A DNA stretch of 64,000 bases from Eledone cirrhosa (GCA_964016885.1 OZ024742.1:84506001-84570000); one strand, 5' to 3'. Counted from the first letter of the stretch, positions 3,349-62,734 are shown. Translations and numbers: made by a program. The notes: generated by a model from the sequence alone, not told the origin.

Positions 3349-6300
3349 AGTTGCATTTATCTTGCTTTATGTTCATACGAGTTATCACCAAGTCACAACC
3401 AGTGACCTCAAGAGACAACAAGGTCCGCCATGTTCAAGAAAGAACATACATACTCACACATGCATCTTTAGTGTTTAGACTTGTGATGTACTTATATTGA
3501 CAGAATCTTCCTTAGTATATGGGCAGTTCCCATTAGTACTATCTTTTGTATTTCTCCTATACGCGGGTTTCTTGGGATTTGCGATAAGTAATCAATAGAC
3601 CCCTTAGGTATCATTCCCAGAGCGCCTACAACCACTGGTATTGTTTTAGTTCTCAATTTCCACATTTTTCCAATTTCTATCTCCAGATCCTTATACTTGC
3701 TCAATTTTTCAAATGTTTTTATAGATACATCCTTGTCTATTGGAATAGAAATATCAATTAGCAGGCATACCCTCTTTTTAAAGTCCTTCAATATTATATC
3801 AGGTCTATTTGCATCTATTTTTCGGTCTGGTTGGATGCTAAAGTTCCACAGGATTGAGATGTGATCTTTTTCAAGTATGGGAGGTGGTTGATGCTCCCAC
3901 CAATTCTTTTGATGGGGCAGGTCAAAATGCTTACACATTATCCAATGTATGTATTGTGCAGCTATGTCATGCCTGTTTAGGTATTCGGTTGGAGCTATAG
4001 GACTGCACATTGAAATTATATGGTCAATGGTCTCTGGTTGTTTTTTGCATACACGGCATAATGGGCTGCATCCATTTTTTATTATGTTGGCTTGGTAATT
4101 TTTTGTTGGCAGACACTGATCTTGTGCTGATATAATCAGTCCTTCAGTTTCCGATTTCAGTCCAGAGGATGCCAACCACTGATGGGTTAAAGTTTTGTCA
4201 ACATCAGGATTGTTAGCCCGCTCTGGTTATTTTCCATACAGAGGCTTTTCTTGCCATTTCTTAGCCAGTTTCTGTAGCAGTTCTTTCTTTGCAGTTACTT
4301 TTACCTGCTTTGCTTTTTCTGTGTTTTCCATTTCTGCAGTAAATGGGACTTCTGAAATTTGTAGTCCATTACTGTATCTTTGTGCATCTTTTGTAATGGA
4401 ATATGATCTTTTGATGCTTTCTTGTTTCCAAACGAGTTTGATCATCCAATCATGTGATTCTCTTAGATATGTACATAATCCAATTGTCGAGTGCTTGATT
4501 CCGTCTCCTTCACAAACACCTAGATATTTGTAAGTTTTTTCTTGATCAAGTTCTCTTATCACGTTCCCCCGATCAAGATTAATGTCTGAACTCTTCAGTA
4601 GCTTTCCTCTGGTGAACGTTGCTTTGGCGCATTTATCTAGTCCAAACTACATTTTAATGTCATCACTGAACTGCTCCACAGTGGATAATAGCCCTTGCAA
4701 TTGTTCATCATTTTTTGCAAATAGTTTCAGGTCATCCATGTAGAACAGGTGATTAATGGTTTTGTCATACACTTTATATCCATGTTTTGTTTCTTTGAGC
4801 ATTTTACTTAATGGTATAAGCGCGATGCAGAATAAAAGCGGTGATAAAGAGTCACCCTGAAAAATTCCACAATTAATATTAACTTCTCCAGCTTCCAGTG
4901 ATTTTGTTTCACTATTCAAAAGGAGTGTCGTTTTCCATGTCTTCATACTGAATGACAAAAACCTCCTGCAACGGGGGATATTTTGAAAATCTCTAAACAT
5001 TTTTCAATCCAACTGTGTGGCAAACTATCGAATGCTTTTTTATAATCTATCCAAGCAATCGATAGATTTTTGTGTCTATTATGACAATCTTCCAGTATCA
5101 TTTTGTTAACCAGAAGCTGATCCTTACAGCCATATGAGCCTCGTTTACACCCTTTCTGCTCAATGGGAAATAGGTCATTTGTTATCAGGTGGTCATATGT
5201 GTATTCAGTTAGGACTGATGTTATAATTTTATACATTGTGGTCAAGCAAGTTATCGGTCTGTAATTTTTGGGATTGTTTGTCTCATCATTCTTCGGAAGC
5301 AGGAATGTAATGCCGTTAACTAGCCATGATGGTATCTTTTCTGGCTCCTTAACTACTTCATTGTAAAGTTGGGCTAACAGCTCATGAGATTCTGTGAAGG
5401 CATTTATCCAAAAGTTTTGTATTTTGTCTTTTCCCGGGGATTTCCATTTGCTGGTTTTTCTTAGAGCCAAGCGCAACTGTTCAACTGTTATATTTTCCCA
5501 TATTTGTTCCTCAAGGTGCGCTGTATCTTTCATTTGTCTGTCTATCCATGGGGCATGTATGTTATGAACTTTTTCTTCGGCCCAGATCTTTTCCCAGAAT
5601 TCTTGCACTTCCTCCTTGGGTGGTATTGATTTAGCAGTTATTGTTGACTTACCAATTTTTCTGTAGAAGTTTCTTTGGTTGTTTTTGAACATACTATTGT
5701 CCTTATAGAATCTAGATCGTTTTTCAAAGCGCCTTATACGAGCAGCTTTGGCCGACACTTTTTGCTTGATTATTTCTATCAGCATGTCTATGTCACATGT
5801 TGATTTCATACTGTACTTTTTTTTTAATTTTCTAAGTTTAGTTTGTTTAACATGTTCACCTACTTTATAGTTTGTTAAAATTTCTATGTCAGATCGGAGA
5901 AGGTTTATTTGGCGATTGATGTTCTCTTGCCAAGTAGATTTCTTGTTGGAATTTCTTTGTTTTTTCATCTTCACTCCACATAAGTGAGTGGTGACTTTAG
6001 CCAATGCATAATAGAGATGATTTAAATCAGTAATGTTTAGTTTGTTTGTGATGATAATGTTTTTGAGAATTATGTTAGTCTTGTGTATTATCTTTTGGTT
6101 CTGTTTGGAGTTCTGGATCTTAGGGAGGGTGTCTCGTTGCGCCATGTCAGATTCTTTCATTTTCATCCATTCGATCATAATTTCATCCTTCAATTTGGCA
6201 AGTTTATTCTCATTCATTTCTTTATCATTTACGATCTCATTATTTTCATTTGGGGTTTCATCCTGAGCATGCACTCCCTCCACTTTTTCGATCCTTTCTT

Positions 6301-7901
6301 TAATTTGTTCTGTTGCCAGTGATTCCGCCCCAACCCTGGGGTTCGAAGTGTTACAGTTTACCTCATTTTCACTGACACATGTTTCATTTTCCCTTCGCTG
6401 ACTTTGTGCTAATAGCTTGATCTGATCAATTTCTATATCAGTTAGTAACTTTTTTCTTACAATATTTCTTCGTATATTGGCTAGTTTGTTACTGTCAATA
6501 TAGCCTGTTTTCGGGATGTTTCTTTTTCCAGTTGATATATGTCTGTTCTGTATTCGATGTATCTGATGGGTAGTACATGGCAGTGTAGAAAGCCTCAAGG
6601 ACTTCTTTATTATCTTCCCTTGACCATTTTTCTCTCTTTTTCTTTGGATTTCTTGGTGGTGAGCATGGAGGGCCAACAGTAGGAGTATTCCGGTTATGGG
6701 AGGTCTCCATTAGCTGATTTTTCGACCCCAGTCTGGTTCCTCTCTGAGGGACGCGGCCCTTTTTTACCGGGGTGACGGCCGATCCGGTATGAGATTTTAT
6801 CATTAGACATTTACTTTATTTTGTCGCGTTTTATCCTTATCCGCCAAGGGGTAATCATTTCGTGTTACCACTTCTAGAACGAGTGTCAACCAAGACTAGA
6901 GGGGTCGTTCTCCCCTAGAGACACGGCTATTCCCCGCCGGCCCCCATCCCGGTATTTCTTGGTCACGGGGTTTTCTTTTTGTTGTTTTTTTTAAATTGTT
7001 ATTATCATGAGTGGTTCCTTAATGTGAGCATTGCGTGGCTTAAGAATGAAATTATTAATAATTGTCTCCACTCCAGGCACAAGGCCAGCAATCACCCAGT
7101 GAATTACAATAATATAATATACTTTTTGCTGTAGTTGCCTGTTATTGTTGTAGGCTATGTCGGTGGTGGTGCCGGGGCTTTTTATATTGTTGGTGAGGAA
7201 GGGGTGAGCCAGCAGTCCCATAGTTGTTGATGTTGACGTTTGGCCGGTGGCCAGGTCACTAAGTCAATCTATTTATATCTTTTGCCAGCCTCTCCCTTGT
7301 CTAGTGATACCGCCACCTTCCCCTTTCTCTCTCAAGTTAACAGGGGAATAGTGGTGGTGGCAATGAAGGAGTGGTGGCGGCGGTGGCGTTGTGGTTACTG
7401 GGTTTTGTGATATGTAGTATCTATGAGTTTGTGTTCGTATGTTTAATATATATTGTGTTGACATATTCCCGTAAAATTGGGATTAAACATTTTGTTAAAA
7501 TTTGAGACAATAATAATAGTAATTATTATTATCATGCCGGGATTGATGGTGGTGGTGGTGAAATTGCCGTTATCTGGCTGTTATATTTAGTGTGATGGGA
7601 TAGGTGGTGTATCAACTTTCTGGTGTTGGTGAAATTGCTGTTATTTGGCTGTAGACAGAGGGTGTTTTCTTCCATTTATAACCATTTTCTTTTTTTGAAT
7701 ACAAAATATATAATACAAAATTGAATATTTGAGCGATATAACAATATAATATGGATCCGAAATTGTATGGGACTTCATTCGGTGGATTATGCAACATTTG
7801 TACTAAGAATTGTTATTTCACAATTGATTTAAATATGTTAAAAATCAAAAACTTACGGGAGCGATTTCATGACCTTCTACCACCTCGTGCGTCTTCTTCC
7901 C
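3348..7901 (-). mobile_element. R4/Dong-clade retrotransposon, divergent family B, near full length, frameshifted
   Basis: RT motifs (KSPGKD, YRPITCL, WIDYKKAFDS, IFQGDSLSP, FYMDDLKLF), CRVC..H....C knuckle, RHD, RPD..D..K RLE motif. 3' UTR 3348-3491 differs from family A. (TTA)n on both sides. Confidence 0.93.
3492..6810 (-). pseudogene. Disrupted RT-RLE polyprotein of Dong family B
   Basis: Split over ORFs 6495-6803, 4943-6676, 4647-5000, 4227-4562 and 3492-4175, with an apparent internal deletion near 4490. Confidence 0.9.
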
Positions 7902-7936
<35 letters not shown>

Positions 7937-7948
7937 ATTATTATTATA

Positions 7949-8014
<66 letters not shown>

Positions 8015-8241: not shown

Positions 8242-8349
8242 TATTATTATTATTATTATTATTGTTGTTGTTATTCCTTGAATCTCAGTCATTGATGTTG
8301 GTTAACTGGAAAGTCCGTTGGATTGAATATCAAGCCACTACCTGCAGCC

Positions 8350-11300
8350 TCAGATATTCAGGACGTATCGGAGGGTTCTTGCCGTTCCAAGCAAGCATGC
8401 CTTTTGAAGCGTTCCAAAAAGCGTGAAGGGGCCGATTTTCTTTAACCATCCCTGGAAACCTTTGGAGATAGTCCCCAGTGCGCCTATGACAATCGGGATC
8501 ACTTTGACTTCATGGCAGTTCCAAATCCTTTTCACCTCCCACTTTAGGTCCTGGTATCGGTTAATTTTCTCCCTCTCCTTCTCTTGCACTCTCGTGTCGA
8601 ACGGGCAGGCCACATCCACAATCAGGCACGATCTTTTTTCTTTGTCCACAACCACCAGGTCAGGTCTATTGTGTTCCAGTTTTTTGTCCGTCTGTATCCT
8701 AAAATCCCACAGCACCTTCACCTGATTGTTCTCCATCACCGCCTCTGGCCTATGCTCATACCATTTCTCAGAATGTGGTAGATTGTTTACTTTGCACAGG
8801 TGCCAGTGGATCACCCTGCCCATCACATCGTGTCTCCAGCCCTTATAGTGGGTCTGGGCTAGGTGTTTACACTCGGACACAATGTGAGCCACAGTCTCCT
8901 CCCTCTCTCCACAGATCCTGCACAGTGGGCTAGCCTCCTCCTTGTAGATATGGTGCTTCAACCACTTCGTTTTGAGGGCCTGCTCCTGCGCAGCCATTAG
9001 CATTCCTTCTGTAGCCTTTTTGAGGTCTCCTCTTCTCAACCAGTTCCATGTCTGTGGATCTCTAAATTCAGTTTTCTCAAAGAAGGTACTATGAAGGGAT
9101 TTTCCCTTAAGGCTGCTCTTCCTCCTTGATGTTATTTCCTCCTTGGGTATCCCCTGGCCTACTGTCCCCTCCTTCAGTACAGCTCTGAGCATTGGCTCCT
9201 TACTATAGGTCACGTATTTGTATAGGTTGTTTTTCTCCATCTGAACACAGTCCTCTATGCTGATAAGACCTCTTCCACCCTCAGATCTCCTTAGGTAGAG
9301 TCTATCGACATCACTCCTCTTGTGGAACATGTTGTAGATAGTCAATAGCTTCCTAGTCTTCCTATCCATTTCTTTTTGTTCAGCAACATTCCATCTCAGA
9401 ATTCCCGCACTGTACCTAATAATAGACACAGCTCGGGAATTTACTGCGCTTATGGCATTTCTGCTGTTCAGATGTGACTTCAATACGCTCCTTACTCTCC
9501 GAATGTATTCAGTTCTTAACAATTCCTTCATTTTTTTGTTCTTTATGCCATCAGCCTCCAGAACGCCCAAATACTTGTATCCTTCCTCAGAGTCAATTTC
9601 CTTTATCATCTCACCTGTTGGTATCTGGATCCCGTTACCTCTGCTCAACCTACCCCTCCTCATCACAATGACTCCACATTTACCAATACCAAACTGCATA
9701 CATATATCACTGCTGAAAATACGGACAGTGTCAACAAGCACATCCAACTCCTTCTCACTTTTCCCGAAGAGCTTAAGGTCGTCCATGAAGAGGAGGTGAT
9801 TGATGGTAAGCTCTCCCCTTCCCAACTTGTATCCTGCTCTCACTTTTCGCAGCATAATGGTCAAGGGCATCAGGGCAAGGACAAACAACAGAGGGGACAG
9901 GCTATCTCCCTGGAAGATACCTCTCTTGATCTTCACGCTTCCCAAGGACACTCCAGTTGATGTCAACTCTGTCTCCCAGGACCCCATACTCCTGCCCAGC
10001 AACTGTCTGATGTTATCTGCCACCCTGAAGATCTCCAGGCTTTTGGTGATCCAGGAATGAGGCACCATGTCAAATGCCTTTCTGTAGTCTATCCATCCCA
10101 TGGCAAGATCAGTGTGTCTCCTCCTGCAATTCCCCATTACCATCTTATCAATAAGCAACTGGTCCTTTGTACCACGTGACTTCTTTCGGCATCCTTTCTG
10201 TTCGTCCGGCAACAAGTTGTTTGTGTGGAGGTGATGGTAGATTTCCTCAGACACAATGCTCGTCAACAGTTTCCACATTACGGGCAGACATGTGATAGGT
10301 CTATAGTTGGTGACATCATTACCCTTGATTTGGTCTTTCATTATCAGAACTGTGGTACCTTTTGTCAACCACTCTGGCACCTCACCCGACACCAAGCAGT
10401 CATTGAACATGGCCGTCAGCTTCGGGTGGAGGGATGTTAGATGTTTAATCCAATACCCCTGCACACCATCTGGGCCTGGTGATTTCCAGTTGGTTAGTTT
10501 TTTGGCTTGCCCCTTAAGAGTTTCAACTGTGATACTCAAATCAGTCTGTTGCTGTGCCTGCTCACCGATCTCCCTCTGTACTGTCTCAATCCACCCTGCC
10601 TGGGCATTGTGTCTAACATCCTGCTCCCATATTCCTCTCCAGAATGTTTTAGCTTGTTCCGCCCCAGGGATCAAGTCGTTGCCTCTTTCTTTCCCCTCAA
10701 GCTGTCCAAACAGCATCTTCTGGTTGTTGTCGAACATGCGGTTCTGTTTATACTGACTGACTCTGTTCTCGTATCGCCTGATTTTGGCACTCTTTGCTAC
10801 AATGCGTTGCTTCAATTCCTCTATGATAATATTTAGCTTTTTACTCCTAGTTTTGTATTTTATTTCCAGTCTATTTTTAGTGCCTATGTTTTTTAGTGTC
10901 CCATTCAGTAGTGACTCAAGCTTTCCTATGTGATTTCTCATTTCCTCGATTTGCCCACTCAGTCGCTTCTTCCACCACGGCTCTGCTCTTTCTTGTCTGT
11001 TGTTTCCTCTCGCTTTTATACCAAGTAGTTTCCTCACCGTATTTGCTCTTGCTTTGAGGATATTGTTGCACTGGTGAAGACTCCTCGCCTCAAGGTATGG
11101 GATGACTTTGTTTACCTTAGCTGTTGTTTCTTTTAACTTTTTCCTGTCTACAAATCTTAGGTTCATAGGTCTCCCACTATCATTGTTCAACTCATCTACC
11201 ACTAAATTTAGGATGTCAACCGAATCTTGTCCTAGCCCGTCAGCATTCATCTCCTCAGTGGCCGTATCTCTGTTCCAGGTATTATTTATCTCAGTATTCA

Positions 11301-11742
11301 GATCATTGTCTGCTTCGGGTGGTTCCTCCGTTCTCAGGACCTCCTCACCTTCATTTCCCGCCGGCTCGCTTGTCTGGCATACTACACCCGCCATCTCCAA
11401 GCCATTCTCTCTGCTCAGTTCCTCCAGTTCCAGCTCGCTTATCCACCCATTAGTTCTTATTACCCGAGCCTGCCCGGCCAATTTTTGTTCATCTAATTTA
11501 AATAAACCAATCTCGTTCCAGATGTTATGCATCCGTCTCCTGTAGCCCCTCTCCTTGGGGTTACTTTTCAGGTAGCATTGCATAACAGTTCTATTCAATT
11601 CTTTCGTCCAGTTGGTTCTGGCCCCTTTCCTTCTTCTTCTTCCTCCAACATCAGCAGTATTTCGTTGACAGTCAGGTTCCTGCTGCTGAGCCAGGGGGCA
11701 CCTGTTGGGTGAGAGTCTGTCACATGACGTTCTAGTCTCCAT
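8350..11742 (-). CDS. R4/Dong-type single-ORF protein: N-terminal Myb-like region, reverse transcriptase, CCHC knuckle, PD-(D/E)xK restriction-like endonuclease (1130 aa)
   Basis: KSPGPDG, YRPITCL, QKGC, WIDYRKAFD, GIFQGDSLSP, LFMDDLKL, YKYLG, GGRGL, CRICGEREETVAHIVSEC, RHD, RPDLVVVD..IVDVACP..KINRY. Confidence 0.97.
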   Translation of the reverse strand: METRTSCDRLSPNRCPLAQQQEPDCQRNTADVGGRRRRKGARTNWTKELNRTVMQCYLKSNPKERGYRRRMHNIWNEIGLFKLDEQKLAGQARVIRTNGWISELELEELSRENGLEMAGVVCQTSEPAGNEGEEVLRTEEPPEADNDLNTEINNTWNRDTATEEMNADGLGQDSVDILNLVVDELNNDSGRPMNLRFVDRKKLKETTAKVNKVIPYLEARSLHQCNNILKARANTVRKLLGIKARGNNRQERAEPWWKKRLSGQIEEMRNHIGKLESLLNGTLKNIGTKNRLEIKYKTRSKKLNIIIEELKQRIVAKSAKIRRYENRVSQYKQNRMFDNNQKMLFGQLEGKERGNDLIPGAEQAKTFWRGIWEQDVRHNAQAGWIETVQREIGEQAQQQTDLSITVETLKGQAKKLTNWKSPGPDGVQGYWIKHLTSLHPKLTAMFNDCLVSGEVPEWLTKGTTVLIMKDQIKGNDVTNYRPITCLPVMWKLLTSIVSEEIYHHLHTNNLLPDEQKGCRKKSRGTKDQLLIDKMVMGNCRRRHTDLAMGWIDYRKAFDMVPHSWITKSLEIFRVADNIRQLLGRSMGSWETELTSTGVSLGSVKIKRGIFQGDSLSPLLFVLALMPLTIMLRKVRAGYKLGRGELTINHLLFMDDLKLFGKSEKELDVLVDTVRIFSSDICMQFGIGKCGVIVMRRGRLSRGNGIQIPTGEMIKEIDSEEGYKYLGVLEADGIKNKKMKELLRTEYIRRVRSVLKSHLNSRNAISAVNSRAVSIIRYSAGILRWNVAEQKEMDRKTRKLLTIYNMFHKRSDVDRLYLRRSEGGRGLISIEDCVQMEKNNLYKYVTYSKEPMLRAVLKEGTVGQGIPKEEITSRRKSSLKGKSLHSTFFEKTEFRDPQTWNWLRRGDLKKATEGMLMAAQEQALKTKWLKHHIYKEEASPLCRICGEREETVAHIVSECKHLAQTHYKGWRHDVMGRVIHWHLCKVNNLPHSEKWYEHRPEAVMENNQVKVLWDFRIQTDKKLEHNRPDLVVVDKEKRSCLIVDVACPFDTRVQEKEREKINRYQDLKWEVKRIWNCHEVKVIPIVIGALGTISKGFQGWLKKIGPFTLFGTLQKACLLGTARTLRYVLNI

Positions 11743-12311
11743 TTCACCGTTATTCGAACTGTTTATGTTCGATATTTAAACACTCTTATCGAGGATTGGC
11801 GAATGTATGTTTACATAGCCATCTGTGGATCCGCCATCCCACTTGGCCCTTGTGTGGCATTATCACCACGCTGTATACGGACACACATAAACAAACAAAC
11901 ACACGGGCAGAAAGGGCCCCAAAAATGAATAAGCATAAGTTTCATTGTAATGTAGTATTCGAATGTCCGACTTAGTTTTTGTTTTTTAAGTTTTACTTTT
12001 CCCCCCCTCTTCTCTGTCCGTCCGCCTGCTTCTCTCTTCATTCTTATTTTCTTTACGTTTTTGGGGTTTCTTTTTTTGTTTTTGTTTTTCTCTGTTTTTC
12101 TCGTTTTTTACTGTTGTTGCTGTGCTGCTTTTGTTGTTTGTTTTTTCTTTTTTCTTTTGAGTCTATCTATATATTTTGATGCCTTCCTCTTTGTTAGTAG
12201 TAGGAATTCTATAATGTGGAAGTGGTAGCCAGCAGAGACTAGCGGCGTTGGCGATACTGAGACAGTGGTGGCGGTGATGTCGATACCGAGGCAGCGGTGG
12301 CGGTGATGCGA

Positions 12312-12982
12312 CCGTATTACTGTAGTGATGGTGCTGTAGCGGTGGCAGCAGCAGTGAAGGAGTCAGGGGGTGGTGGCGGCGGTGATGGGACAGCGGTGGC
12401 AATGATGGCCGTAGTGAGCGGTGGCGGTGAAGGTGAAAATGCTGTTGTGTTTAGTGTACACAGATGATGGGGTGGGTGGTGTATCTAGTTTCTGGTGTTG
12501 GTGAGTTTCGCTGTCCTATATAGTGTAGCCAGAGGAGAGGAGGGGGGGGGGGTTCTTCTTCTTCCATTTATAGCCATTTTATTTTATTTATTTATTTTTT
12601 TTTTTTTTTTGGATATACAGTGTACAATACAAAGTTGAATATTTGAATATTTGAGCCGTATTACTGTAGTGATGGTGCTGTAGCGGTGGCAGCAGCAGTG
12701 AAGGAGTCAGGGGGTGGTGGCGGCGGTGATGGGACAGCGGTGGCAATGATGGCCGTAGTGAGCGGTGGCGGTGAAGGTGAAAATGCTGTTGTGTTTAGTG
12801 TACACAGATGATGGGGTGGGCGGTGTATCTAGTTTCTGGTGTTGGTGAGTTTAGCTGTCCTATATAGTGTAGCCAGAGGAGAGGAGGGGGGGGGGGGTTC
12901 TTCTTCTTCCATTTATAGCCATTTTTTTTTTTTTTGGATATACAGTGTACAATACAAAGTTGAACATTTGAATATTTGAGCC
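12312..12982. repeat. Tandem direct duplication (~340 bp x2) in the Dong A 5' leader
   Basis: Units 12312-12655 and 12656-12982 both start ccgtattactgtagtgatgg and end gaatatttgag; they differ mainly in G and T homopolymers. Confidence 0.95.
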
Positions 12983-13147
12983 TTATAACAATATATTTTG
13001 GGTCCGAATTTTTTGGGGCTCAAGCCGGGTGCTTTACGTAGCATTTGTACTAAGAGTTGTTATTTCACAAATGATTTAAATATGTTAAAAATTCAAAACT
13101 TACGGGAGCGATTTCATGACCTCCGTCACCTCGTGCGTCTTCTTCCC

Positions 13148-13193
<46 letters not shown>

Positions 13194-13201
13194 GTTGTTA
13201 T

Positions 13202-14217
13202 TCCTTGAATCTCAGTCATTGATGTTGGTTAACTGGAAAGTCCGTTGGAATGAATATCAAGCCACTACCTGCAGCGTCAGATATTCAGGATGTATCGGAG
13301 GGTTCTTGCTGTTCCAAGCAAGCATGCCTTTTGAAGCGTTCCAAAAAGCGTGACGGGGCCGATTTTCTTTAACCATCCCTGGAAACTTTTGGAGATAGTC
13401 CCCAGTGCGACTATGACAATCGGGATCACTTTGACTTCATGGCAGTTCCAAATCCTTTTCACCTCCCACTTTAGGTCCTGGTATCGGTTAATTTTCTCCC
13501 TCTCCTTCTCTTGCACTCTCGTGTCGAAAGGGCAGGCCACATCCACAATCAGACACGATCTTTTTTCTTTGTCCACAACCACCAGGTCAGGTCTATTGTG
13601 CTCCAGTTTTTTGTCCGTCTGTATCCTAAAATCCCACAGCACCTTCACCTGATTGTTCTCCATCACCGCCTCTGGCCTATGCTCATACCATTTCTCAGAG
13701 TGTGGTAAATTGTTTACTTTGCACAGGTGCCAGTGGATCACCCTGCCCATCACATCGTGTCTCCAGCCCTTATAGTGGGTCTGGGCTAGGTGTTTACACT
13801 CGGAAACAATGTGAGCCACTGTCTCCTCTCTCTCTCCACAGATCCTGCATAGTGGGCTAGCCTGCTCCTTGTAAATATGGTGCTTCAACCACTTCGTTTT
13901 GAGGGCCTGCTCCTGCGCAGCCATTAGCATTCCTTCTGTAGCCTTTTTGAGGTCTCCTCTTCTCAACCAGTTCCATGTCTGTGGATCTCTAAATTCAGTT
14001 TTCTCAAAGAAGGTACTATGAAGGGATTTTCCCTTAAGGCTGCTCTTCCTCCTTGATGTTATTTCCTCCTTGGACATCCCCTGGCCTATTGTCCCCTCCT
14101 TCAGTACAGTTCTGAGCATTGGCCCCTTACTATAGGTCACGTATTTGTATAGGTTGTTTTTCTCCATCTGAACACAGTCCTCTATGCTGATAAGACCTCT
14201 TCCACCCTCAGATCTCC

Positions 14218-14219
<2 letters not shown>
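13202..14219 (-). mobile_element. 5'-truncated Dong family A copy (~1.0 kb)
   Basis: ORF 13277-14167 matches the last 296 aa of the intact ORF. Confidence 0.96.
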
Positions 14220-14268
<49 letters not shown>

Positions 14269-17200
14269 GGCAACCTACGTAGTAAATCGTATCATCGTGA
14301 GCTCCGCAAAGGTTTGTTATTTTCAGTTATTTAAATTTGCCATTTATGGAAAATGTTTATTGTTAACTATATATAAGTGCACATACATTGATTTCTGAAA
14401 AGGACACTCAAAAATATTGGGGCCTTGAGCCCAAAATTTAAACTTTTTATATTTATCAAACAAAAATTTTTTTCTTTGAAAAATAATGGATGACTCAGAT
14501 TCACTCCTTCCTCGCAATCCAACACCTCACACCGACACCACCATTTTAAACATTGCTACGTTTGCCAACACTGGAATTGTAAGCAGTAGCAATATTTAAA
14601 ATTTGTCTCAGGCAGACGTTCATTTACCGCCATTACCAATGACTGCAGGTGTTAAAGCCGCCACCACCACCACCACCACCGCGACAACCGCCATACAGCG
14701 ACAATAGAAATAAAAAAAAAAAATTAACTCATGATATCGAAATGAATTCAACCAAAATGAACTATTCCACACCGAACACCACTGACGCCACCACCACCAC
14801 CACCACCACAACTGAAACTAAAATTAACAATAGCAAAAATAACGATAATAACAACAGCAACAATGAAATTAAGAAAACTACCCTGAGTTTTGCCAGAGTA
14901 GCAAAAACGTGCGAAGCGATTCAGGTAACTCAGGAAGAATTAGACGAAGCCAAAGGAATGGTAAAGAAAGATGGGTACGGGGTCAGCCTCACCCCCCACA
15001 CCTAATAAAATGGAGCAACGTCGCCTATGCACGGTGTCTTATCGGACAATAAACATAAAATCGCGCCGAGTGGAACGGGCATCTGAGTCCCAAATCCCCA
15101 AAACTTTGGGACATGTGTGGGCAAAGAAACCCACATCAGACGTGGGCAGAAGTATGGAACCGTGGACGTGTTCTTTGAAACACCACAGGAGGCCAGAGAA
15201 CACTCCATGGCCCAATTAAGAAGTGACGACTTCACACTCATCCCAAGCTATTGTGGCCAGAGACTTGTGAAGATCAGGGTGACCCACGTTCCACCGGCCA
15301 TCGAAATTCCCAGGCTAATGGCTGCCGTTGTCGCCGACATCGAGGCCAACACCAAAATAATAGAAATAGCAAAAGAGAAGTAGAACTGGTCCGGATCTGG
15401 GATGGAGCTCCTGATCCAAGCGGACCATAAAAGCATTGAAGAGATCCCAGAGGTAATAGACCTCAGTGACGGCAGCCACCTCACCGTAATCGTCGAGGGC
15501 AGAAGACCTAGGTGTGTCGTTTGTGGTGAAGGAACCCACCTAAGGGCTTTCTGCCCTCAGGCTAAAAGGTTGAGGCTACCTCTCTTACCCACCCCAGTGA
15601 CTCAACCATCAATACCACCAGCAGCAGAAATAGTAGCAACAACTGTAGCAGCAACAACAGAAGCAACTGTAACAGCAACAACCCCAGCAACAGTAGCAAA
15701 ACCAACACCACCACCACCCAACGCCCCATAACTAGCACCAGTGCCTACACCATCCACCAGGCCACAACAAAAACCAACGCCTCTGGAGGATTTTCCACTC
15801 CCCGGCTTATCGCAACTGGAGACAGATTGTGACGACTAGGAGTGGGAAACGGTATCAGGGAAAAAGAAAAAAAAGAGAAACCAAAAAAGAAAAAATCTCT
15901 TCCTTCCCCCTCAAAAAACAAAATACAGAAGGAAACAAATAAATTGTCGAACAAGAAAGTTAAGACAGATATGCCACCATCCACACCAGCATCATCAACC
16001 CCATCACCACAAACTACAACACCATCACCATCATTAACCCCAACACCATCTTCACCAACACCACAACAGTCACCAAAAAGCGTAACAGAAACAAACCCAC
16101 AACAAACGCAAACAAAACAAAAACAACCAAAACGATACACACTACACAGCATTAAATTTGAACAACAAGCAATTATTACACTACATGCAACACAACACCA
16201 GCATCACAGAAAAAGACTACACAACAAGCCAAAAGTTCACACCACCTCCACACATACAAATCACTCGCATCACACAGAAAACGTACACGACACTAAAACA
16301 AAAATTCCCCAAAGACATCGGAGACTTCCGACAAACACTCTCCAGGAGGATTTATAAGGACATCCTTCCGGAGGAGGCCACAAGCAGTGAAAAGGATGGA
16401 CAAACCATCCTTCCTCTACGAGAAGTAAGGTAAGTGGTCTTTCCCATCTTTTCCACTCCGTTCAACATAACCTCACTCAGAATAGGCAGCATAAATGCTC
16501 GTGGCTTGGGGTCGTCATGGCAGCAGGGCCATCTGCTCAACGACCTCAGGTCACTAAACATAGATGTAGTGGCCATCAGCGAGACCAGAATCTCCGAAGC
16601 ATGGGCCTTCGCACCGATCTTCGGCGGCTACGATATGTACGCATCTCCCAGCCGTCCTGGATCGGGGGGAGGAGTTGCTGTGCTTTTTCGGAGAGGTTTG
16701 GATCTTGCCACACGGGCCATCTTCCTGGACCCAGTGGGTAAGTTGGTGGTGCTGGACGTGACCAGCGGAGACGAGCAAGCTTTCAGGCTAGTGGCCGTCC
16801 ATGCCCCGACAGGAGCAGGGCGGCCTGATTTCTTCCGGCGTCTGAAGACCTTTCGTGGAACGTCCCGCTCTTTAGTGTTAGTGGGAGACTGGAACGGGAT
16901 CTTAGATGCGCACTGGGACTGTGTGGGATTAGGGAATAGGGGTGGAGGGTGCAAGAGCCTCGCCAACATGCTCAGGCATTTTGAACTGTCTGACAGGTAC
17001 CGATTGAATTTCCCGAATGTGCCAATGTGGACTTGGACAAATCGCATAGGGTCATCCAGATCATATCTAGATAGAGTATTTTGTAGGGAAATAGATAGGT
17101 CTAACATAGGCTGTCCACAATTCAAGATAGTCAGCTACACGGATCACAAATTCGTGATCTGTGTACTTGACTTCGATAGGCTTCATAGACGAGGACCCGG

Positions 17201-17757
17201 CTACTGAAAGCTAAACGCGTCCTTACCAGCGCGCAAGGCCTACAGAGACCGGATTAGCGAACTAGTTAAGCGGACGTTGACGGGGGCCATCGTCAACGAC
17301 AAGTGGTGGTTTGCTCTGAAAAGAGCAATTAGAATAGAATCCATTAGGTTTAGCAAGGCTTTAGCAATAGAGAAAAATAGAGCAGAGGGAGAACTAGTTA
17401 GAAAATTAGACGAGGCACTTAGCAAAGGCATCGCGACCGACGTGCTTGCGGCGAAATTGGCCCTTGACCAATTCTTCAATGCAAAGCACGAAGGCTGCGT
17501 TGTCAGAGCTAGGGTGCGTTCAATGGGCCCGAGTGGCGGAGGCGCGTTGTGGCAACAAAGCCACGATCCGGTCTTTGGTGGACCACGACGAGCGCATGCT
17601 ACTCGATCCCGGGCAAATGTGTGAAGCTTTTTTGTTCTATTATTACATCCTCTGTTTCTTTTTTTTACACGCAGAAATGCCCATTTCTACCGTCCTGTAT
17701 TGTCCTGCACTGTCCTTAATGTCTACTTTATGTAAACCCTTGTTGTTAATAAAGAAA

Positions 17758-17759
<2 letters not shown>
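14269..17759 (+). mobile_element. Tx1/L1-clade LINE, internally deleted copy retaining both ends
   Basis: Same 5' end and 3' UTR as the copy at 17817-23701. ORF1 has stops, the APE domain spans 16434-17207, and ~2.35 kb including the RT is missing at ~17630. Confidence 0.93.
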
Positions 17760-17816
<57 letters not shown>

Positions 17817-18025
17817 GGCGACCTACGTAGGAAATCGTATTATCGTGAGCTCCGCAAAGGTTTGTTATTTCCGTTTGTTTAAAAATTGCCATTTATGGAA
17901 AATTTTATTGTAAACTGTTTATAAGCACACATACATTGTTTTCCGAAAAGGACACCCAAAAAGATTGGGGCCTTGTGCCCAAAATTTTAACTTTTATTAT
18001 TATCCAAAAATTTCTTTGAAAAAAA

Positions 18026-20003
18026 ATGGCTAATTCCCCTCTGCACGAAGCAGCTGAAAGCCTTCCTCACAAAATAACACCTCACACCGACACCACCATT
18101 GTAAATGTTACTACGTTTGCCAACACAAAAAAAAATATAAGCAGTAGCAATATTTTAAATTTGTCTCAGGCAGACATTCATTTCCCGCCATTACCAATGA
18201 CTGCAGGTGTTAAAGCCTCCACCACCACCACCACCGCGACAACCACCACCACCACCGCGACAACAGAAACAAAAGAAGAAAAAAATAAATTAACTCGTGA
18301 CGTCGAAATGAAATCAAGCAAAATGGACTCTTCCCCACCAAAGACGACTGACGTCAGCACCACCACAACTGAAAATAAAATTAATATTAACGATAGCAAC
18401 AACAACAACAATGACATTATAAAACCGACCCTCAGTTTCGCCATCGTAGCAAAACAATTCGAAGCGTTCACGGTAACTCAAGAAGATTTAGAAAATGCCA
18501 AACAAATGGTAAAGAAAGATGGGTACAGGGTCAGCCTCAACCCCCACCTAATAAAATGGAGCATCGGCGCCTGTGCACCGTGTCGTATAGAACAATAAAT
18601 GTAAAATCGCGCCGAGTGGAACGGGCATCCGAGTCCCAAATCCAAAAAGCTTTGGGACATGTGTGGGCAAGAAAAACCCACATCAGACGTGGGCAAAAGT
18701 ATGGAACCGTGGATGTGTTCTTTGAAACACCAGAGGAGGCTAGAGAACACTCCATGGCCCCATTAAAAAGTGACGACTTCACACTCGTCCCAAGCTATTG
18801 TGGCCAGAGACTCGTAAAGATCAGGGTGACCCATGTTCCACCGGCCATCGAAATTCCCTGGCTAATAGCGGCTGTCATCGCCGGCATCGAGGCCAACACG
18901 AAAATAATAACAATAGCAAAAGAAAAGCAGGAAAACTTGTCCGGATCTGGGATGGAGCTCCTGATCCAAGCGGACCAAAAAAGCATTGAGGAGATCCCGG
19001 AGGTAATAGACCTCACTGACGGCAGCCACCTCACGGTAATTGTCGAGGGCAGAAGACCTAGGTTTGTCGTTTGTGGTGAAGGAACCCACCTAAGGGCTTT
19101 CTGCCCTCAGGCTAAAAGGTTGAGGCCACCTCTCCTACCCACCCAGTGACACAACCATCAACACCACCAGTAGCAGAGATGGCAGCAACAACTGTAGCAG
19201 CAACAACAGAAGCAACTATAACAGCAACAACCCCAGCAACAGTAGCAAAACCAACACCACTACCACCACCAGCAAAACCAACACCACCACCACCCAACGC
19301 TTCAGAACTAGCACCAGCGCCTACACCATCCACCACACCACAACCAAAACTAACGGCTGTGGAGGATTTTCCACTACCCGGCCTATCACAACTGGAGACA
19401 GATTGTGACGACGAGGAGTGGGAAACGATATCCGGAAAAAAAAAAAGAAACCAAAAAAGAAAAAATTCTCTTCCTTCCCCCTCCAAAAACAAAATACAGA
19501 GGGAAACAAATAAACTAAGAAACAAAAAAGTTAGGACAGATATGCCACCATCCACACCAGCATCACCAACCCCATCAACCCAAACACCAACACCATCACC
19601 ATCATTATCCCCAGCACCACCATCACCTACACCACAAAAGTCACCAAAATGCGAAACAGAAAGAAACCCACAACAAACGCAAACAAAACAAAACAACCAA
19701 AACGATACACACTACACAGCATTAAATTTGAACAACAAGCAATTATTACACTACATCCAACACAACACCAGCATCACAGAAAAAGACTACACAACAACCC
19801 CAAAATTCACACCACCTCCACACATACAAATCACTCGCATCACACAGAAAACGTACATGACACTAAAACAAAAATTCCCCAAAGACATCGGAGACCTCCG
19901 ACAAGCACTCTCCAGGAGGATTTATAAGGACATCCTTCCTGAGGAGGCCACAAGCAGTGAAAAGGATGGAAAAGCCGTCCTTCCCCTACGAGAAGTAAGG
20001 TAA
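18026..20003 (+). pseudogene. Tx1 ORF1 (gag-like: RRM-like region, CCHC-type knuckle, Pro/Thr-rich linker), split by two 1-nt C-run frameshifts
   Basis: ORFs 18026-18598, 18556-19149 and 19146-20003. Knuckle (C/F)VVCGEGTHLRAFCP is CVVC in copy 1. Confidence 0.85.
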
Positions 20004-20037
20004 GTGGTCTTTCCCATCTTTTCCACTCCTTTTCAAC

Positions 20038-23000
20038 ATGACCTCACTCAGAATAGGCAGCATAAATGCGCGTGGCTTGGGGTCGTCATGGAAGCAGGGC
20101 CACCTGCTCAACGACCTCAGGTCACTAAACATAGATGTAGTGGCCATCAGCGAGACCAGAATCTCCGAAGCACAGGCTTTCGCACCGATCTTCGGCGGTT
20201 ACGTTGTGTACGCATCTCCCAGCCGTCCGGGATCGGGGGGACGAGTTGCTGTGCTTTTTCGGAGAGGTTTGGATCTTGCCATACGGGCCATCTTCCTGGA
20301 CCCAGAAGGTAAGTTGGTGGTGCTGGACGGGACCAGCGGAGACGGGCAAGCTTTCAGGCTAGTGGCCGTCTATGCCCCGACAGGAGCAGGGCGGCCTGAT
20401 TTCTTCCGGCGTCTGGAGACCTTTCTTGGAACGTCACGCTCTTTAGTGTTAGTGGGCGACTGGAACGGGATCTTAGATGCACGCTGGGATTGTGTGGGAT
20501 TAGTGGATAGAGAAGGAGGGTGCAAGAGCCTCACCAACTTGCTCAGACGTTTTGAACTGTCTGACAGGTACCGAATGGATTTCCCGAATGTACCAATGTG
20601 GACTTGGACAAATCGCATAGGGTCATCCAGATCATATCTAGATAGAGTATTTTGTAGGGAAATAGATAGGTCTAGCATAGGCTGTCCACAATTCAAGATA
20701 GTCAGCTACACGGACCACAAATTCGTGATCTGTGTGCTTGACTTAGATAGGCTTCATAGACGAGGACCCGGCTACTGGAAGTTAAACGCATCCTTACCAG
20801 CGCGCAAGGCCTACAGAGACCGGATTAGCGAACTAGTTAAGCGGGCGTTGACGGGGGCCATCGTCAACAACAAGTGGTGGTTTGCTCTGAAAAGAGCAAT
20901 TAGAATAGAGTCCATTAGGTTTAGTAAGACTTTAGCAATAGAGAAAAATAGAGCAGAGGGAGAATTAGTTAGAAAATTAGATGAGGCGCTTAGCAAAGGC
21001 ATCGCGACCGACGTACTTGCGGCGAAATTGGCCCTTGACCAATTCTTCAATGCAAAGCACGAAGGCTGCGTTGTCAGAGCTAGGGTGCGTGCTCTCAGAC
21101 ACGAGGGGACAAAAGCCGTTCAATGGGCCCGAGTGGCGGAGGCGCGTCGTGGCAACAAAGCCACGATCCGGTTTTTGGTGGACCATGACAGGCGCATGCT
21201 ACTCGATCCCGGGCAAATGTGTGAAGCTTTTCAGCGATACTTCGCTCAACTGTTCGGGAGCAGTGGCGGGCCGGATCGAGGGATGGACTTTAGTGTCTAC
21301 CTCGACGGAATGCCGCGGCTTTCGGCCACTGAGGCGGAGTGTTGCGAAAAGCCGATAACAACCGCTGAAGTACGGGATGCAATGACTAGTTGCACAAGGG
21401 GTAAATCGCCTGGTTTGGATGGTCTGCCCTATGAACTTTACGTACAAATGCCAAACTTGTTCGGAGGCCTCTTGGCGGACGTCTACTGCAACTGGCAACA
21501 GAACGGGAGAATTCCCAGCTCTGTGAGCCGAGGAGCGGTGGCGCTGCTGAGAAAGGATCCGAACAAGGGGGATAACATAGATAATTTTAGGCCCATAACT
21601 CTGCTAAACACAGAGTTCAAGATTTTGGCCAAGGTGCTAGCAAAGAGGTTGGCGCTTGTCGTTGGTGGTCTGGTGGGAGAGGCACAGACATGCGCCATTC
21701 CCGACAGATCCATCCACGACAACCTCCACCTCATGCGATACATCGTAGAGAGGGTAGCTAGGGAACCTGGCACGGGTGGGTCTTTGATCAATTTAGATCA
21801 GTCGAAAGCCTTCGATAGGGTCGACCATCGTTACCTAACGGCAGTCCTGAGGGCGGCTGGCTTTGGGCCCGTCTTCAGAGGCTGGATCGCTGCCATGCAC
21901 AGCGACATCTGCTCTGTAGTGAGAGTGAACGGTCACATTTCGGAACCGTTCAACATCATGCGCTCGGTCCGCCAAGGATGTCCCCTCTCGTCCCTATTGT
22001 ACGTATTGACTCTCGAGCCATTACTGCACAAACTGGAGACGTTGAGGGGGGTCCCGCGCGAACTAGGATGCGGAAGATCCGTGTCAGCATATGCCGACGA
22101 TGTCACCGTAGTGGTGTCGAACGCCAAACACATCGAGGCGATCGGCACTACACTAAGAGAATACGAAGCGGTGACAGGAGCAATGATCAACCAGGAAAAG
22201 TCAGTGGGCCTGCAGCTCGGCACCTGGAGAGGCAGGTCCATGCCGTCCAACAGCGTCGTCGGGCGCTGGACGGACGGACCGGTTAAATTGCTAGGGGTCT
22301 GGTTCGGTCCAGACCTCCAGACGGACAAAAACTGGGACGAGGTGACGAGCAGGGTGGCCTCTCTCACCCAGAAATGGGCCGAGAGGAAGCTATCCCTGAA
22401 AGGTCGAGCGGAGGTGGCGAGTGCGTACATCGCATCCGTCATCTACTACCGCCTGACCGTCGTACCTTGTCCTAAGCCCCGCCTCACTGCGCTGGAGCGT
22501 TTGCTCTTTCGCTTCTTGTGGAAGGGACGTGCTCCGATGGTCAGGCGGTCCATCTGCTGTCAACACCCGCTACGTGGAGGGCTGGGCATGCCGTGGCTGA
22601 TGATGCGCAGACACGCGCTCAGGCTACGACATCTCCACCTCTTCCTCGACGGTGATCAGGTGTGGTCGCCGTTTGCAAGACACGTTTTTCCCCAGCTCGT
22701 CTCCTTGACGGAGCTGCAGTCCTGGGTCAAGCGAAGACCGAGAGGGAGCGCTTGGAGACTGGAATGTCTTCAGGCGCTCACAGCCCTCGACCAATCGGGC
22801 AATGTGATCGGTGGAAACTCCACCTTGGCGTTCTATAGGGGATTAGTGGAGGGGAAGAGCGACGACGTACTTGGAGAAACTCTAGGCGTCGACGAAAATC
22901 AACTAGCCAATCTCTTCGGAAGGACTTTCGGGCCGGGGCCTATGGACAACTTCCAGAAATCCCTGGCCTGGCAGTGCTACCGAGGAGCTTTGCCAGTTCG

Positions 23001-23457
23001 GGATAAACTCTACAGGCATGGAGGTGCCGTCAGCCGGGCATGTCCGAGATGCGCGCAGGGCGACGAAACCGTCCTGCACGCACTCGTCCAGTGTCCGAGC
23101 ATTGCTGACTTGTGGGTTTATTTCGAACACCTGCTGTCACGTGTAGGACGGATCCAGCTATCAGCTGAGTCCATCGTGAGGATTTCCCCGCCCCCTTCCT
23201 TTAGCCTGGAAGGGCAGGCAGTTTTTATCTGTCTGGTGGCCATGGCGAAAGAGATAGTATGGTGGACACGTTTGAAAGGGCTGAAGACGAGCACTTACCT
23301 CTTCGGTGATGCCCTGATTAACTTTTTCAAATTTCATTTGAAAAGGAAAATCAGGGTAGAGAGGGAAGTGCTCTCTTCCCAGCATTTTGTTGAAAGATGG
23401 GTGAGAGAAGCAAGTATGGCCCGAATGAATGGGCCTTCTCTGAGTATGTGTCTGTAA
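20038..23457 (+). CDS. Tx1-type ORF2: APE endonuclease + reverse transcriptase + C-terminal CCHC (1139 aa)
   Basis: GSINARG, SET, VYAP, GDWN, YLDRVF, TDH (APE); KSPGLDG, FRPITLLN, LDQSKAFDRV, VRQGCPLS, YADD (RT); CPRC..ETVLHALVQC. Confidence 0.97.
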   Translation: MTSLRIGSINARGLGSSWKQGHLLNDLRSLNIDVVAISETRISEAQAFAPIFGGYVVYASPSRPGSGGRVAVLFRRGLDLAIRAIFLDPEGKLVVLDGTSGDGQAFRLVAVYAPTGAGRPDFFRRLETFLGTSRSLVLVGDWNGILDARWDCVGLVDREGGCKSLTNLLRRFELSDRYRMDFPNVPMWTWTNRIGSSRSYLDRVFCREIDRSSIGCPQFKIVSYTDHKFVICVLDLDRLHRRGPGYWKLNASLPARKAYRDRISELVKRALTGAIVNNKWWFALKRAIRIESIRFSKTLAIEKNRAEGELVRKLDEALSKGIATDVLAAKLALDQFFNAKHEGCVVRARVRALRHEGTKAVQWARVAEARRGNKATIRFLVDHDRRMLLDPGQMCEAFQRYFAQLFGSSGGPDRGMDFSVYLDGMPRLSATEAECCEKPITTAEVRDAMTSCTRGKSPGLDGLPYELYVQMPNLFGGLLADVYCNWQQNGRIPSSVSRGAVALLRKDPNKGDNIDNFRPITLLNTEFKILAKVLAKRLALVVGGLVGEAQTCAIPDRSIHDNLHLMRYIVERVAREPGTGGSLINLDQSKAFDRVDHRYLTAVLRAAGFGPVFRGWIAAMHSDICSVVRVNGHISEPFNIMRSVRQGCPLSSLLYVLTLEPLLHKLETLRGVPRELGCGRSVSAYADDVTVVVSNAKHIEAIGTTLREYEAVTGAMINQEKSVGLQLGTWRGRSMPSNSVVGRWTDGPVKLLGVWFGPDLQTDKNWDEVTSRVASLTQKWAERKLSLKGRAEVASAYIASVIYYRLTVVPCPKPRLTALERLLFRFLWKGRAPMVRRSICCQHPLRGGLGMPWLMMRRHALRLRHLHLFLDGDQVWSPFARHVFPQLVSLTELQSWVKRRPRGSAWRLECLQALTALDQSGNVIGGNSTLAFYRGLVEGKSDDVLGETLGVDENQLANLFGRTFGPGPMDNFQKSLAWQCYRGALPVRDKLYRHGGAVSRACPRCAQGDETVLHALVQCPSIADLWVYFEHLLSRVGRIQLSAESIVRISPPPSFSLEGQAVFICLVAMAKEIVWWTRLKGLKTSTYLFGDALINFFKFHLKRKIRVEREVLSSQHFVERWVREASMARMNGPSLSMCL

Positions 23458-23700
23458 ATTAAAGGTGGAAAACTGGGAGAGGGCACTTGCCCTGGTGGTC
23501 AGGGCCACTGTGGTCTTTTAATGGGCTTTCTCCACAAATGTCCCTTGGAAGTCTCCCCCCTATTGGGGAATTTTTCTTTGTTATTTTATTTCAACCTCTG
23601 TTTTTTTTACACGCAGAAATGCCCATTTGTACCGTCCTGTATTGTCCTGTACTGTCCTTAATGTCTACTTTATGTGAACCCTTGTGGTTAATAAAGAAAA

Positions 23701-23736
<36 letters not shown>

Positions 23737-25832: not shown

Positions 25833-25903
<71 letters not shown>

Positions 25904-25938
25904 TAGGAATCACCAAAGAGTGCTTAGAAATACATTGT

Positions 25939-25997
25939 TTTATTAGCTAACAGTGTTTCATCTATACCTCTTGGCAGGGTTCATCAGAGCCTATACA
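25939..25997 (-). ncRNA. Hammerhead motif, left arm copy
   Basis: taggct-CTGATGA-stem II-GAAA-cactg-TT-agctaataaa on the minus strand. Confidence 0.6.
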
Positions 25998-27561: not shown

Positions 27562-27620
27562 TTTATAGGCTCTGATGATTCCTGCCATGGGGTATGGATG
27601 AAACACTGTTAGCTAATAAA
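27562..27620 (+). ncRNA. Hammerhead motif, right arm copy
   Basis: tttataggct-CTGATGA-ttcctgccatggggtatggat-GAAA-cactg-TT-agctaataaa; stem I pairs 9 of 10. Confidence 0.65.
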
Positions 27621-27844
27621 ACAATGTATTTCTAAGCACTCTTTGGTTATTCCTATAACCAAAGAGTGCTTAGTAGTATACTAGTTATCCTACATTGAGC
27701 TAAAAGCACACTGTCATACCAAGGGCAATTTATCTGCGTGTCTGGGTATATTGATATATTTGTCAATGAAAGTATATATATATATATGTGTGTGCGTGTG
27801 TCTGTGTGCCCGCGCGCGTGCGTGTGTGTGTGTATTTATTTATA

Positions 27845-34782: not shown

Positions 34783-34835
34783 TATATATATATATATAAT
34801 ATAAGATCAAAAGATGGTTAAAGGAGTTCCATGTA

Positions 34836-34902
34836 TTTTATTATGCGCATTTCAAAAACAAACATCATCATGCAATAATATTTGTGTTTTCATCAGATAA
34901 AA
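34836..34902 (-). ncRNA. Type-I hammerhead ribozyme (left arm, minus strand)
   Basis: Exact reverse complement of 35017-35083. Confidence 0.85.
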
Positions 34903-35016
34903 CAGGAGAACATGATATGAAGGCTAAAAAACACTTGTGGATAGTGCAGTTTGATATGTTGATTTAAAACTGCACTATCCACAAGTGTTTTTTAGCCTTC
35001 ATATCATGTTCTCCTG

Positions 35017-35083
35017 TTTTATCTGATGAAAACACAAATATTATTGCATGATGATGTTTGTTTTTGAAATGCGCATAATAAAA
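35017..35083 (+). ncRNA. Type-I hammerhead ribozyme
   Basis: ttttat-CTGATGA-aaacacaaatattattgcatgatgatgtttgttttt-GAAA-tgcgca-TA-ataaaa; predicted cut after 35077. Confidence 0.85.
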
Positions 35084-35295
35084 TACATGGAACTCCTTTA
35101 ACCCTCTTTTGATCTTATATTATGCATACTCCAGTCCTACAAACTGTAGAGTGCTTCTTATCCGATATCTGCATTGCTTTATTGTACTACAATAAAACTC
35201 ACCTCCCACATTATATATATATATATATATATATTAGAAAGTGAGGTTTTTTTTACAAAATGAAAAATAACCGAGGTGTCCTACACGAGGGAAAG

Positions 35296-58030: not shown

Positions 58031-58040
58031 TTACTATTAT

Positions 58041-58967: not shown

Positions 58968-58999
58968 ATTATTATTATTATTATTATTGTTATTGTTAT

Positions 59000-62688: not shown

Positions 62689-62734
<46 letters not shown>

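Follow-up and report, generated by a model that had tools for sequence, protein, structure and literature searches.

RLE elements (R2, R4, and Dong) are generally held to be promoterless and to be cut from host transcripts by a ribozyme, and internal promoters are typical of APE elements. In a 64,000-nt stretch of Eledone cirrhosa DNA (the whole stretch analyzed, hereafter the window), a first-pass annotation proposed that the 5′ end of a Tx1 element (APE; 14269–14495) is homologous to the 5′ module of a Dong element (RLE), and that an internal promoter was exchanged between the two clades. We asked whether these 5′ ends share descent, in which direction the sequence moved, and what it may do for Dong.

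Composition of the Retrotransposon Nest

In the first part of the window (1–24 kb), non-LTR retrotransposons lie nested within (TAA)n/(TTA)n tracts (Table 1). The target orientation differs, being TAA for Dong and TTA for Tx1. The 5′ end of Tx1 copy a directly abuts a (TTA)n tract, and the (TAA)n target of Dong in sense orientation holds in the flanks of 30 copies. The labels of Tx1 as APE and Dong as RLE were borne out by domains and closest proteins. In the DongA ORF, Pfam RVT_1 was present, Exo_endo_phos (APE) was absent, and the best PDB matches were R2 proteins. C-terminal CCHC and PD-(D/E)xK endonuclease motifs were seen by eye in the Dong translation, and zf-RVT fell below the cut-off. 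R4/Dong is the probable assignment, on the basis of domains and target. Tx1 ORF2 showed APE and RT domains and was closest to human L1 ORF2p, and the L1-group arrangement of ORF1 followed by an APE-RT ORF2 was found. We presume that these elements belong to the Tx1 clade and not to L1 proper, following the first-pass annotation and the target specificity.

Table 1. Features of the window, with positions counted from its first letter
Feature	Position	Strand	Remark
DongC, partial	1–2610	minus	
DongB, second Dong lineage	3349–7901	minus	broken frames
DongB 5′ module	7538–7901	minus	
DongB 5′ end	7865–7538	minus	donor profile, E 7.9e-13
168-nt GT-AG segment missing from spliced-type DongB copies	7689–7856	minus	
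DongA (R4/Dong, RLE), full length	8243–13147	minus	putative assignment
DongA open frame	8350–11775	minus	first in-frame ATG 11742
Rest of DongA leader	11776–12889	minus	C/A-rich, closed frames; native Dong pre-ORF region
DongA 344-nt tandem duplication	12312–12664 / 12656–12989	minus	3′ part of module and ORF1 relic
DongA 5′ module	12890–13147	minus	UTR and ORF1 start (second ATG 12912), almost certainly from Tx1
DongA 5′ end	13111–12890	minus	donor profile, E 2.2e-13
Dong conserved motif	13098–13109	minus	consensus 5′ splice donor, GT at 13103–13102
(TAA)n/(TTA)n target tracts	7902–8014; 13148–13202; 14219–14268; 17760–17816		
Tx1 copy a (family T1)	14269–17759	plus	internal deletion, broken frames; self-BLAST and BLAST of L043
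5′ UTR of Tx1 copy a and ORF1 start codon	14269–14488	plus	start codon 14486–14488
Tx1a 5′ end	14257–14716	plus	donor profile, E 4.5e-15
Conserved +33 motif of Tx1 UTR	14301–14311	plus	counterpart of the Dong motif
GC hairpin of Tx1 UTR	14419–14436	plus	alignments
Tx1 copy b, full length	17817–23701	plus	
Tx1 copy b, 5′ UTR	17817–18025	plus	
Tx1 copy b, ORF1	from 18026	plus	frameshifted
Tx1 copy b, APE-RT ORF2	19999–23457	plus	
Tx1b 5′ end	17830–18127	plus	donor profile, E 4.6e-12

DongA and the window-type Tx1 are young and abundant in the genome: first-look searches gave 1429 DongA and 2181 Tx1b candidates, and the 40 scored copies of each were essentially identical. The proteins of DongA and DongB were 34 to 47% identical, with no match at the DNA level. 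The DongA module ran on into the DongA ORF in all 30 fetched copies and is therefore the true 5′ end of the family. The 5′ ends were uniform, with 32 of 34 starts sharing one three-G end, a figure partly selected by the query. The 344-nt duplication was missing from at least six of 30 copies and therefore marks a DongA subfamily.

Several other features of these elements were observed. The first Dong bases were repeated within the upstream TAA tract in L002, L014, L017, L023, and L034, which suggests stuttering at the 5′ junction, and B-type copies were often preceded by (GAA)n. Nest debris, in the form of antisense Tx1 3′ tips of 40 to 150 nt, was found in the Dong leaders of L280, L282, and L361, and a similar tip was recognized by eye only in the window DongB, the leader of which also contains what we take to be a fossil SINE-like tail (7000–7107, minus strand). 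Elsewhere in the window, a second, 5′-truncated DongA (58022–62689, minus strand; 99.5% identical to 8243–11964) has an intact ORF, lacks the module, and adjoins another truncated copy. Long inverted repeats at 25900–27659 and 34791–35128, with arms of 165 to 186 nt and a 167-nt near-perfect hairpin, are probably MITE-like. An unrelated repeat unit was tandemly arranged at ∼10.4-kb spacing in L394 to L396 (G000:C25:608586-632399), with a further copy at L385.

The Window Tx1/Dong Pair Alone Gives a Weak Signal

The strings quoted in the first-pass annotation lie where it had placed them, with block 1 at offsets 32 (Tx1, 14301) and 38 (DongA) and start codons at 18026 and 12922. Its alignment of three collinear blocks was correct for block 1, but blocks 2 and 3 were out of register. 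In block 2, the Tx1 stretch is the GC hairpin (offset 152), whereas the Dong look-alike (offset 121) pairs with another part of the Tx1 UTR; in Dong, the true counterpart lies ∼35 nt beyond that look-alike and is decayed. Block 3 was off by 10 nt, as the Dong ATG corresponding to the donor ORF1 start is the second one (12912) and not that at 12922.

The Tx1a and DongA modules were 61.5% identical, and the outcome of shuffle tests on the window pair varied with the scoring scheme. With blastn-like scores, three of the four Tx1/Dong window pairs were not significant (p 0.19–0.91) and one reached 0.02; with scores of 5/−4/−16/−4, both DongA pairs passed and both DongB pairs did not; and with lenient gap costs, all four passed. 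The pairwise test was rejected as proof, being scoring-dependent and not decisive. The signal was also weak with a profile built from three Tx1 UTRs of the window type, in which DongA scored 3.1 bits, a value reached by 15 of 300 dinucleotide shuffles. Because the window pair was borderline, other Tx1 families were gathered without the use of Dong, and their addition made the profile signal clear.

Tx1-Only Profiles Recognize the Dong 5′ Module

The other Tx1 families were obtained by an APE-domain search and upstream fetches in which Dong played no part. The UTR lengths were alike: 215 to 226 nt in 10 Tx1 UTRs from seven families, and 222 to 231 nt to the first ATG in five Dong modules. The profile of these 10 UTRs scored DongA at 21.1 bits and DongC at 29.8 and 20.2 bits, values reached by none of 500 shuffles of two kinds each. 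A second B-type module scored 6.9 bits (4/500 shuffles), and the window DongB was missed, its score being reached by 437 of 500 shuffles. The best match outside Tx1 and Dong 5′ ends was 6.0 bits in 863 kb of loci. When Tx1 families were held out, they scored 26.2, 0.2, 17.2, 40.0, 43.8, 28.0, and 7.0 bits. Because these scores range from 0.2 to 43.8 bits, Dong behaves like one more Tx1 family.

The Tx1 families also differed among themselves. In the young family S4 (L147, L150, L151, L158, L159, and L237), ORF2 was 95 to 96% identical to that of Tx1b, and ORF1 and the 5′ UTR were different, so that Tx1 families have exchanged their 5′ parts, joined here close to the border between ORF1 and ORF2. 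In family S3, the 5′ end of L140 (G000:C2:225560500-225566131) follows a (TA)n tract and not (TTA)n, and the Tx1 element L144 sits in a (TACC/TATC)n tract.

An Old Tx1 Lineage Lies Nearest to the Source of the Dong Module

The first donor copies came from a pattern search for the shared, Dong-like motif in a non-Dong context. Among its 132 matches were old TTA-side elements much closer to Dong. The set was widened by two DNA searches, which also returned early Dong modules, and the donor-lineage copies were mostly 67 to 83% identical to the query copies. In the extended loci, the ORF1 core was found in 9 of 10 and the APE end of ORF2 in 6 of 10, on the same strand; in L351, the UTR, ORF1 core, and ORF2 follow in that order. 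A living Tx1 element that carries the young Dong module exactly, on the TTA side, was also sought and rejected: genome-wide, the TTA-side matches to the Dong module were only three, all of them DongA copies beside mixed tracts, and the donor copies are instead old and decayed.

Selection on the Dong-like motif was controlled by removing the 13-nt motif before the shuffle tests. After this removal, L271 and L272 beat 1000 of 1000 shuffles in all 12 pairs with Dong modules, L274 passed five of six Dong pairs, L278 one of six, and family S8 none of six. Furthermore, the donor copy L321 matched the early Dong modules L327, L328, and L329 at 74 to 78% over 161 to 220 nt (E 7e-30 to 2e-29). Donor L325 and Dong L361 aligned over ∼280 nt, through the ORF1 start and ∼110 nt of ORF1; the match stops at a TAA-like run, and L361 reads on into a DongA-type ORF. 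Identity to L321 was 75 to 80% for early Dong modules, 68 to 70% for DongA/B, and 61% for the window Tx1, and the window Tx1 is therefore a cousin of the donor and not the donor. Over its initial 30 nt, the young Dong module differed from the donor sequence.

A profile built from 12 donor-lineage Tx1 copies gave four full-length matches in the 64-kb window, which were both Tx1 and both Dong 5′ ends (Table 1), and three short low-complexity matches inside Tx1 ORF1. Its UTR part reached at most 4.0 bits across 65 control stretches (265 kb), consisting of CR1-like and RTE-like upstream regions, pattern noise, and 31 kb of the window.

We consider it almost certain that the Dong 5′ module descends from a Tx1 UTR. 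The decayed Tx1 lineage is nearest to the source of the module, and the Dong families likely captured their front end there. The proposed homology thus stands as common descent through the wider Tx1 families and the donor copies, with the window pair alone being weak evidence for it, and the window Tx1, although related, is a distant cousin in place of the partner that had been named. A sister Tx1 lineage that the annotation had predicted does exist, though in decayed form. Its suggestion of a vestigial Tx1 ORF1 in Dong was upheld at the DNA level for the start and ∼110 nt and failed at the protein level: the conserved ORF1 core (RNA-binding/zinc-knuckle) was absent from Dong leaders, in which the ORF1 profile met low-complexity parts only.

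The Module Probably Passed from Tx1 to Dong and Then Among Dong Lineages

In a tree of 42 5′ ends, rooted only at the midpoint, a branch (82/72, not starred) set apart the 15 Dong-labeled rows, which adjoined the donor copies and three of which (L284, L328, and L346) showed no attached RLE ORF in the stretch read. The Dong rows formed a ladder from early to young, and the Tx1 UTR branches were much longer (up to 0.57, versus 0.02 for the Dong stem). The GC hairpin was intact in most Tx1 families and in early Dong modules and decayed in young Dong. It is highly probable that the transfer ran from Tx1 to Dong, because Dong carries a useless ORF1 start, the hairpin decays along the Dong ladder, and Tx1 diversity is deeper. 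The exchange across clades envisaged at the outset looks like a one-way transfer, followed by swaps among Dong lineages.

The DongA and DongB modules were sisters, 90% identical over the first 120 nt. Older modules were found on A-type ORFs (L279, L281, L282, L289, and L361), on B-type ORFs (L277, a fragment, and L280), and on a third Dong lineage (L363 and L365) that is 27 to 51% identical to the A and B types. In L365, an early module was joined straight to the native Dong pre-ORF region without an ORF1 remnant, and in L096 and L097, B-type modules were stacked onto C-type modules. The module therefore moved between Dong lineages more than once.

A Conserved Motif Likely Doubles as a Rarely Used Splice Donor

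The best-kept motif of the module lies at +35 to +45 and has the splice-donor consensus in Dong and in most Tx1 families; Tx1a and Tx1b (T1a/T1b) have the conserved motif without the GT donor form. A junction-pattern search gave 21 matches, four of which were DongB copies joined from the motif donor to the ATG region. In L168/L227 and L170/L228, which are full length, on different contigs, and of different variants, exactly positions 46 to 213 were lost; the missing segment begins with GT and ends with AG, and its two sides have no letters in common at the joint. In the tandem pair L166/L167, the joint falls 5 nt short of the AG and does not follow an AG. A pattern without a fixed donor gave 83 matches, and all four module-derived ones broke at the same donor base; an extra match, L221, was set aside as unrelated. 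The exact GT-AG loss was thus present in two of ∼548 DongB-type copies, of which 544 were unspliced. The exact joint was also found in a contig of run X1, but as the four runs belong to one study and the sample is possibly the assembled one, this is not independent support. The DongB acceptor is weak.

No spliced DongA or DongC copy was found by the junction patterns. For T1, the pattern gave 46 matches, and the 25 examined comprised point variants, members of other Tx1 families, an internal deletion, and an unrelated RT; a further search gave none, and no UTR joint was among the joints listed. No spliced S2 copy was among the 12 of 49 matches examined, and a broader junction pattern gave 13 matches, one of them Dong, with four others examined and unrelated. 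The whole 1.2-kb DongA leader was also considered as a single intron ending at the acceptor-like site at ∼11871 and was rejected, as no joined copy was among 21 matches to a pattern that misses exons starting with G or having T second, and a quarter through its last letter. The exact GT-AG losses indicate that the module is likely a rarely spliced Pol II leader; splicing points to Pol II transcription and not to the start site.

Further splice-like signals were noted outside the module. The DongA pre-ORF region has a putative, conserved acceptor-like site near 11871 (minus strand). In Tx1, ORF1 ends within a perfect splice-donor consensus, with the stop codon inside it in most families read (window 19995–20040, plus strand; also L133, L135, L137, L140, L144, and L150, upstream of ORF2), and a pyrimidine-rich spacer of ∼40 nt separates this donor from the ORF2 start. 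This predicted donor may control ORF2 expression or yield ORF1-only RNA.

Proposed Capture Route and Alternative Explanations

With reasonable confidence, we favor a nested capture of the Tx1 5′ UTR/promoter by Dong and its later spread. A Dong copy would have inserted into a TAA-like low-complexity run early in Tx1 ORF1 and, because of that target, in the Tx1 sense direction; this site is suggested by the run of that kind at which the Tx1/Dong match stops. Transcription from the Tx1 promoter would then extend through the Dong ORF, and the chimeric RNA would be copied in full, up to its 5′ end, by the Dong protein. The promoter would be kept as the ORF1 remnant decayed, and later versions of the module would pass between Dong lineages by template switching or renesting. 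As in human L1, the +35 to +45 motif likely has two roles, one in the promoter and one as a splice donor that is seldom used.

The insertion route is drawn from one junction type, which template jumping fits too: the Dong RT could have jumped end-to-end onto a truncated Tx1 RNA comprising the 5′ UTR and first ORF1 codons. Jumps of this kind by R2, onto U12 and tRNA, occur in vivo (PMC3414825), and the direct join in L365 may be a second, independent one. However, in most early modules the match stops at a TAA-like run, which is what Dong targets, and the antisense Tx1 3′ tips in L280, L282, and L361 are target-tract debris as expected of a genomic nest; we hold this route, the main alternative, to be possible but less likely. 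It is more doubtful still that Dong acquired the module and gained no promoter from it, being expressed as before by host read-through, with the leader kept for RNA processing, translation, or no reason. Splicing indicates Pol II transcription and not where the start lies, and decay of the hairpin is seen in the young and abundant families, but the 90% identity of the first 120 nt spans lineages with proteins only 34 to 47% alike, copies have a single start base and no detectable ribozyme, and duplicated or stacked modules recur (the DongA duplication and the B-on-C pairs).

The source itself could be otherwise, with Tx1 taking its UTR from Dong, or both taking it from a host gene. The tree is unrooted, and L1 families recruit 5′ UTRs from unknown sources according to PMC3600994; yet Dong retains an unusable Tx1 ORF1 start, Tx1 UTR diversity is far deeper, and the hairpin is intact in Tx1, which makes such an origin very improbable. 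That host core-promoter or splice signals evolved separately at similar spacing in AT-rich DNA is scarcely credible. The best-kept motif is indeed a general splice-donor consensus and the window pair is only 61.5% identical, but collinear identity to donor copies is 74 to 80% over 160 to 280 nt and extends into ORF1, CR1-like and RTE-like upstream regions score low, and a graded series of intermediates exists, so that this explanation is already largely refuted.

Beyond the favored nested capture, a broader reading is put forward tentatively, as a serious possibility: an autonomous RLE lineage would have left ribozyme-dependent read-through once nesting in a microsatellite niche common to both clades had brought it the Pol II promoter of an APE element, and this promoter would then have passed around three or more distant Dong lineages, persisted longer than its donor, and enabled the large Dong expansion, leaving in the genome a complete graded fossil series that extends from the donor to the young families.

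Probable Promoter Function and Comparison with Known Systems

There is good reason to expect that Dong uses the captured module as a promoter, and the module likely serves in place of the ribozyme known from silkworm Dong. The Bombyx mori element of the Dong/R4 clade resembles the one described here in its single RT-RLE ORF and (TAA)n target (PMC3774820, PMC7998251). It is reported to carry a self-cleaving HDV-like ribozyme at its 5′ end (PMC3774820), whereas the Dong elements here have a 0.9- to 1.4-kb leader with a Tx1-type UTR head and no detectable ribozyme: no Rfam ribozyme match was found at the Dong 5′ end at E up to 5, and an HDV descriptor had no fit in the Dong leader. Before the DongA-type ORF (11745–11870, minus strand), an L3-like motif and two possible stems were seen, which may be a decayed HDV-like remnant, with a misfit of P3, P1.1, and the catalytic base.

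Parts of this account have parallels elsewhere. In mammalian L1, as here, a young 3′ part gains the 5′ UTR of another element, and modules move between families there as they do among Tx1 families in this genome; the exchanges described are within the L1 clade or from unknown sources, whereas here the recipient is RLE and the source APE (PMC3600994). The Drosophila R2/R1 hybrid SIDEs are likewise RLE/APE chimeras of clades sharing a target locus, in which one clade supplies the 5′ expression signal and the other the 3′ end; they are described as non-autonomous, with an RLE ribozyme on an APE 3′ end, in contrast to the autonomous, abundant elements here with an APE UTR on an RLE ORF (PMC3414825). 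Human L1 SpIREs are, like the spliced DongB copies, rare retrocopies of RNA spliced inside the 5′ UTR. Their donor is kept as part of a motif needed by the promoter and lies in a RUNX3 site with tested function, whereas the two exact copies here have a putative one (PMC5860796). Kibi and Koshi are two-ORF APE elements of the Tx1 group in microsatellites, as here, but with (TC)n and (TTC)n targets in place of (TTA)n (PMC4494074).

Thus, 5′ UTR recruitment within L1 and non-autonomous RLE/APE hybrids were known, and an APE UTR on an autonomous RLE Dong appears to be new; the literature searched, a body that excludes Repbase notes and subscription journals, contained no description of an APE-derived UTR on an autonomous RLE element. 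The available text of octopus repeat papers lists Dong-R4 and L1-Tx1 as active or present and makes no mention of the leader (PMC13282606, PMC9115989). In the octopus annotation, Dong-R4 is given as the most numerous recently active LINE group, with 1129 insertions in five families, and the captured leader may bear on this abundance (PMC13282606). The module offers a candidate promoter of ∼230 nt in which one motif is kept across more than ten families, and it represents a natural case for a promoterless element gaining a promoter. The traceable transfer of a UTR from Tx1 to Dong shows that even the deepest LINE divide can be bridged by expression modules.
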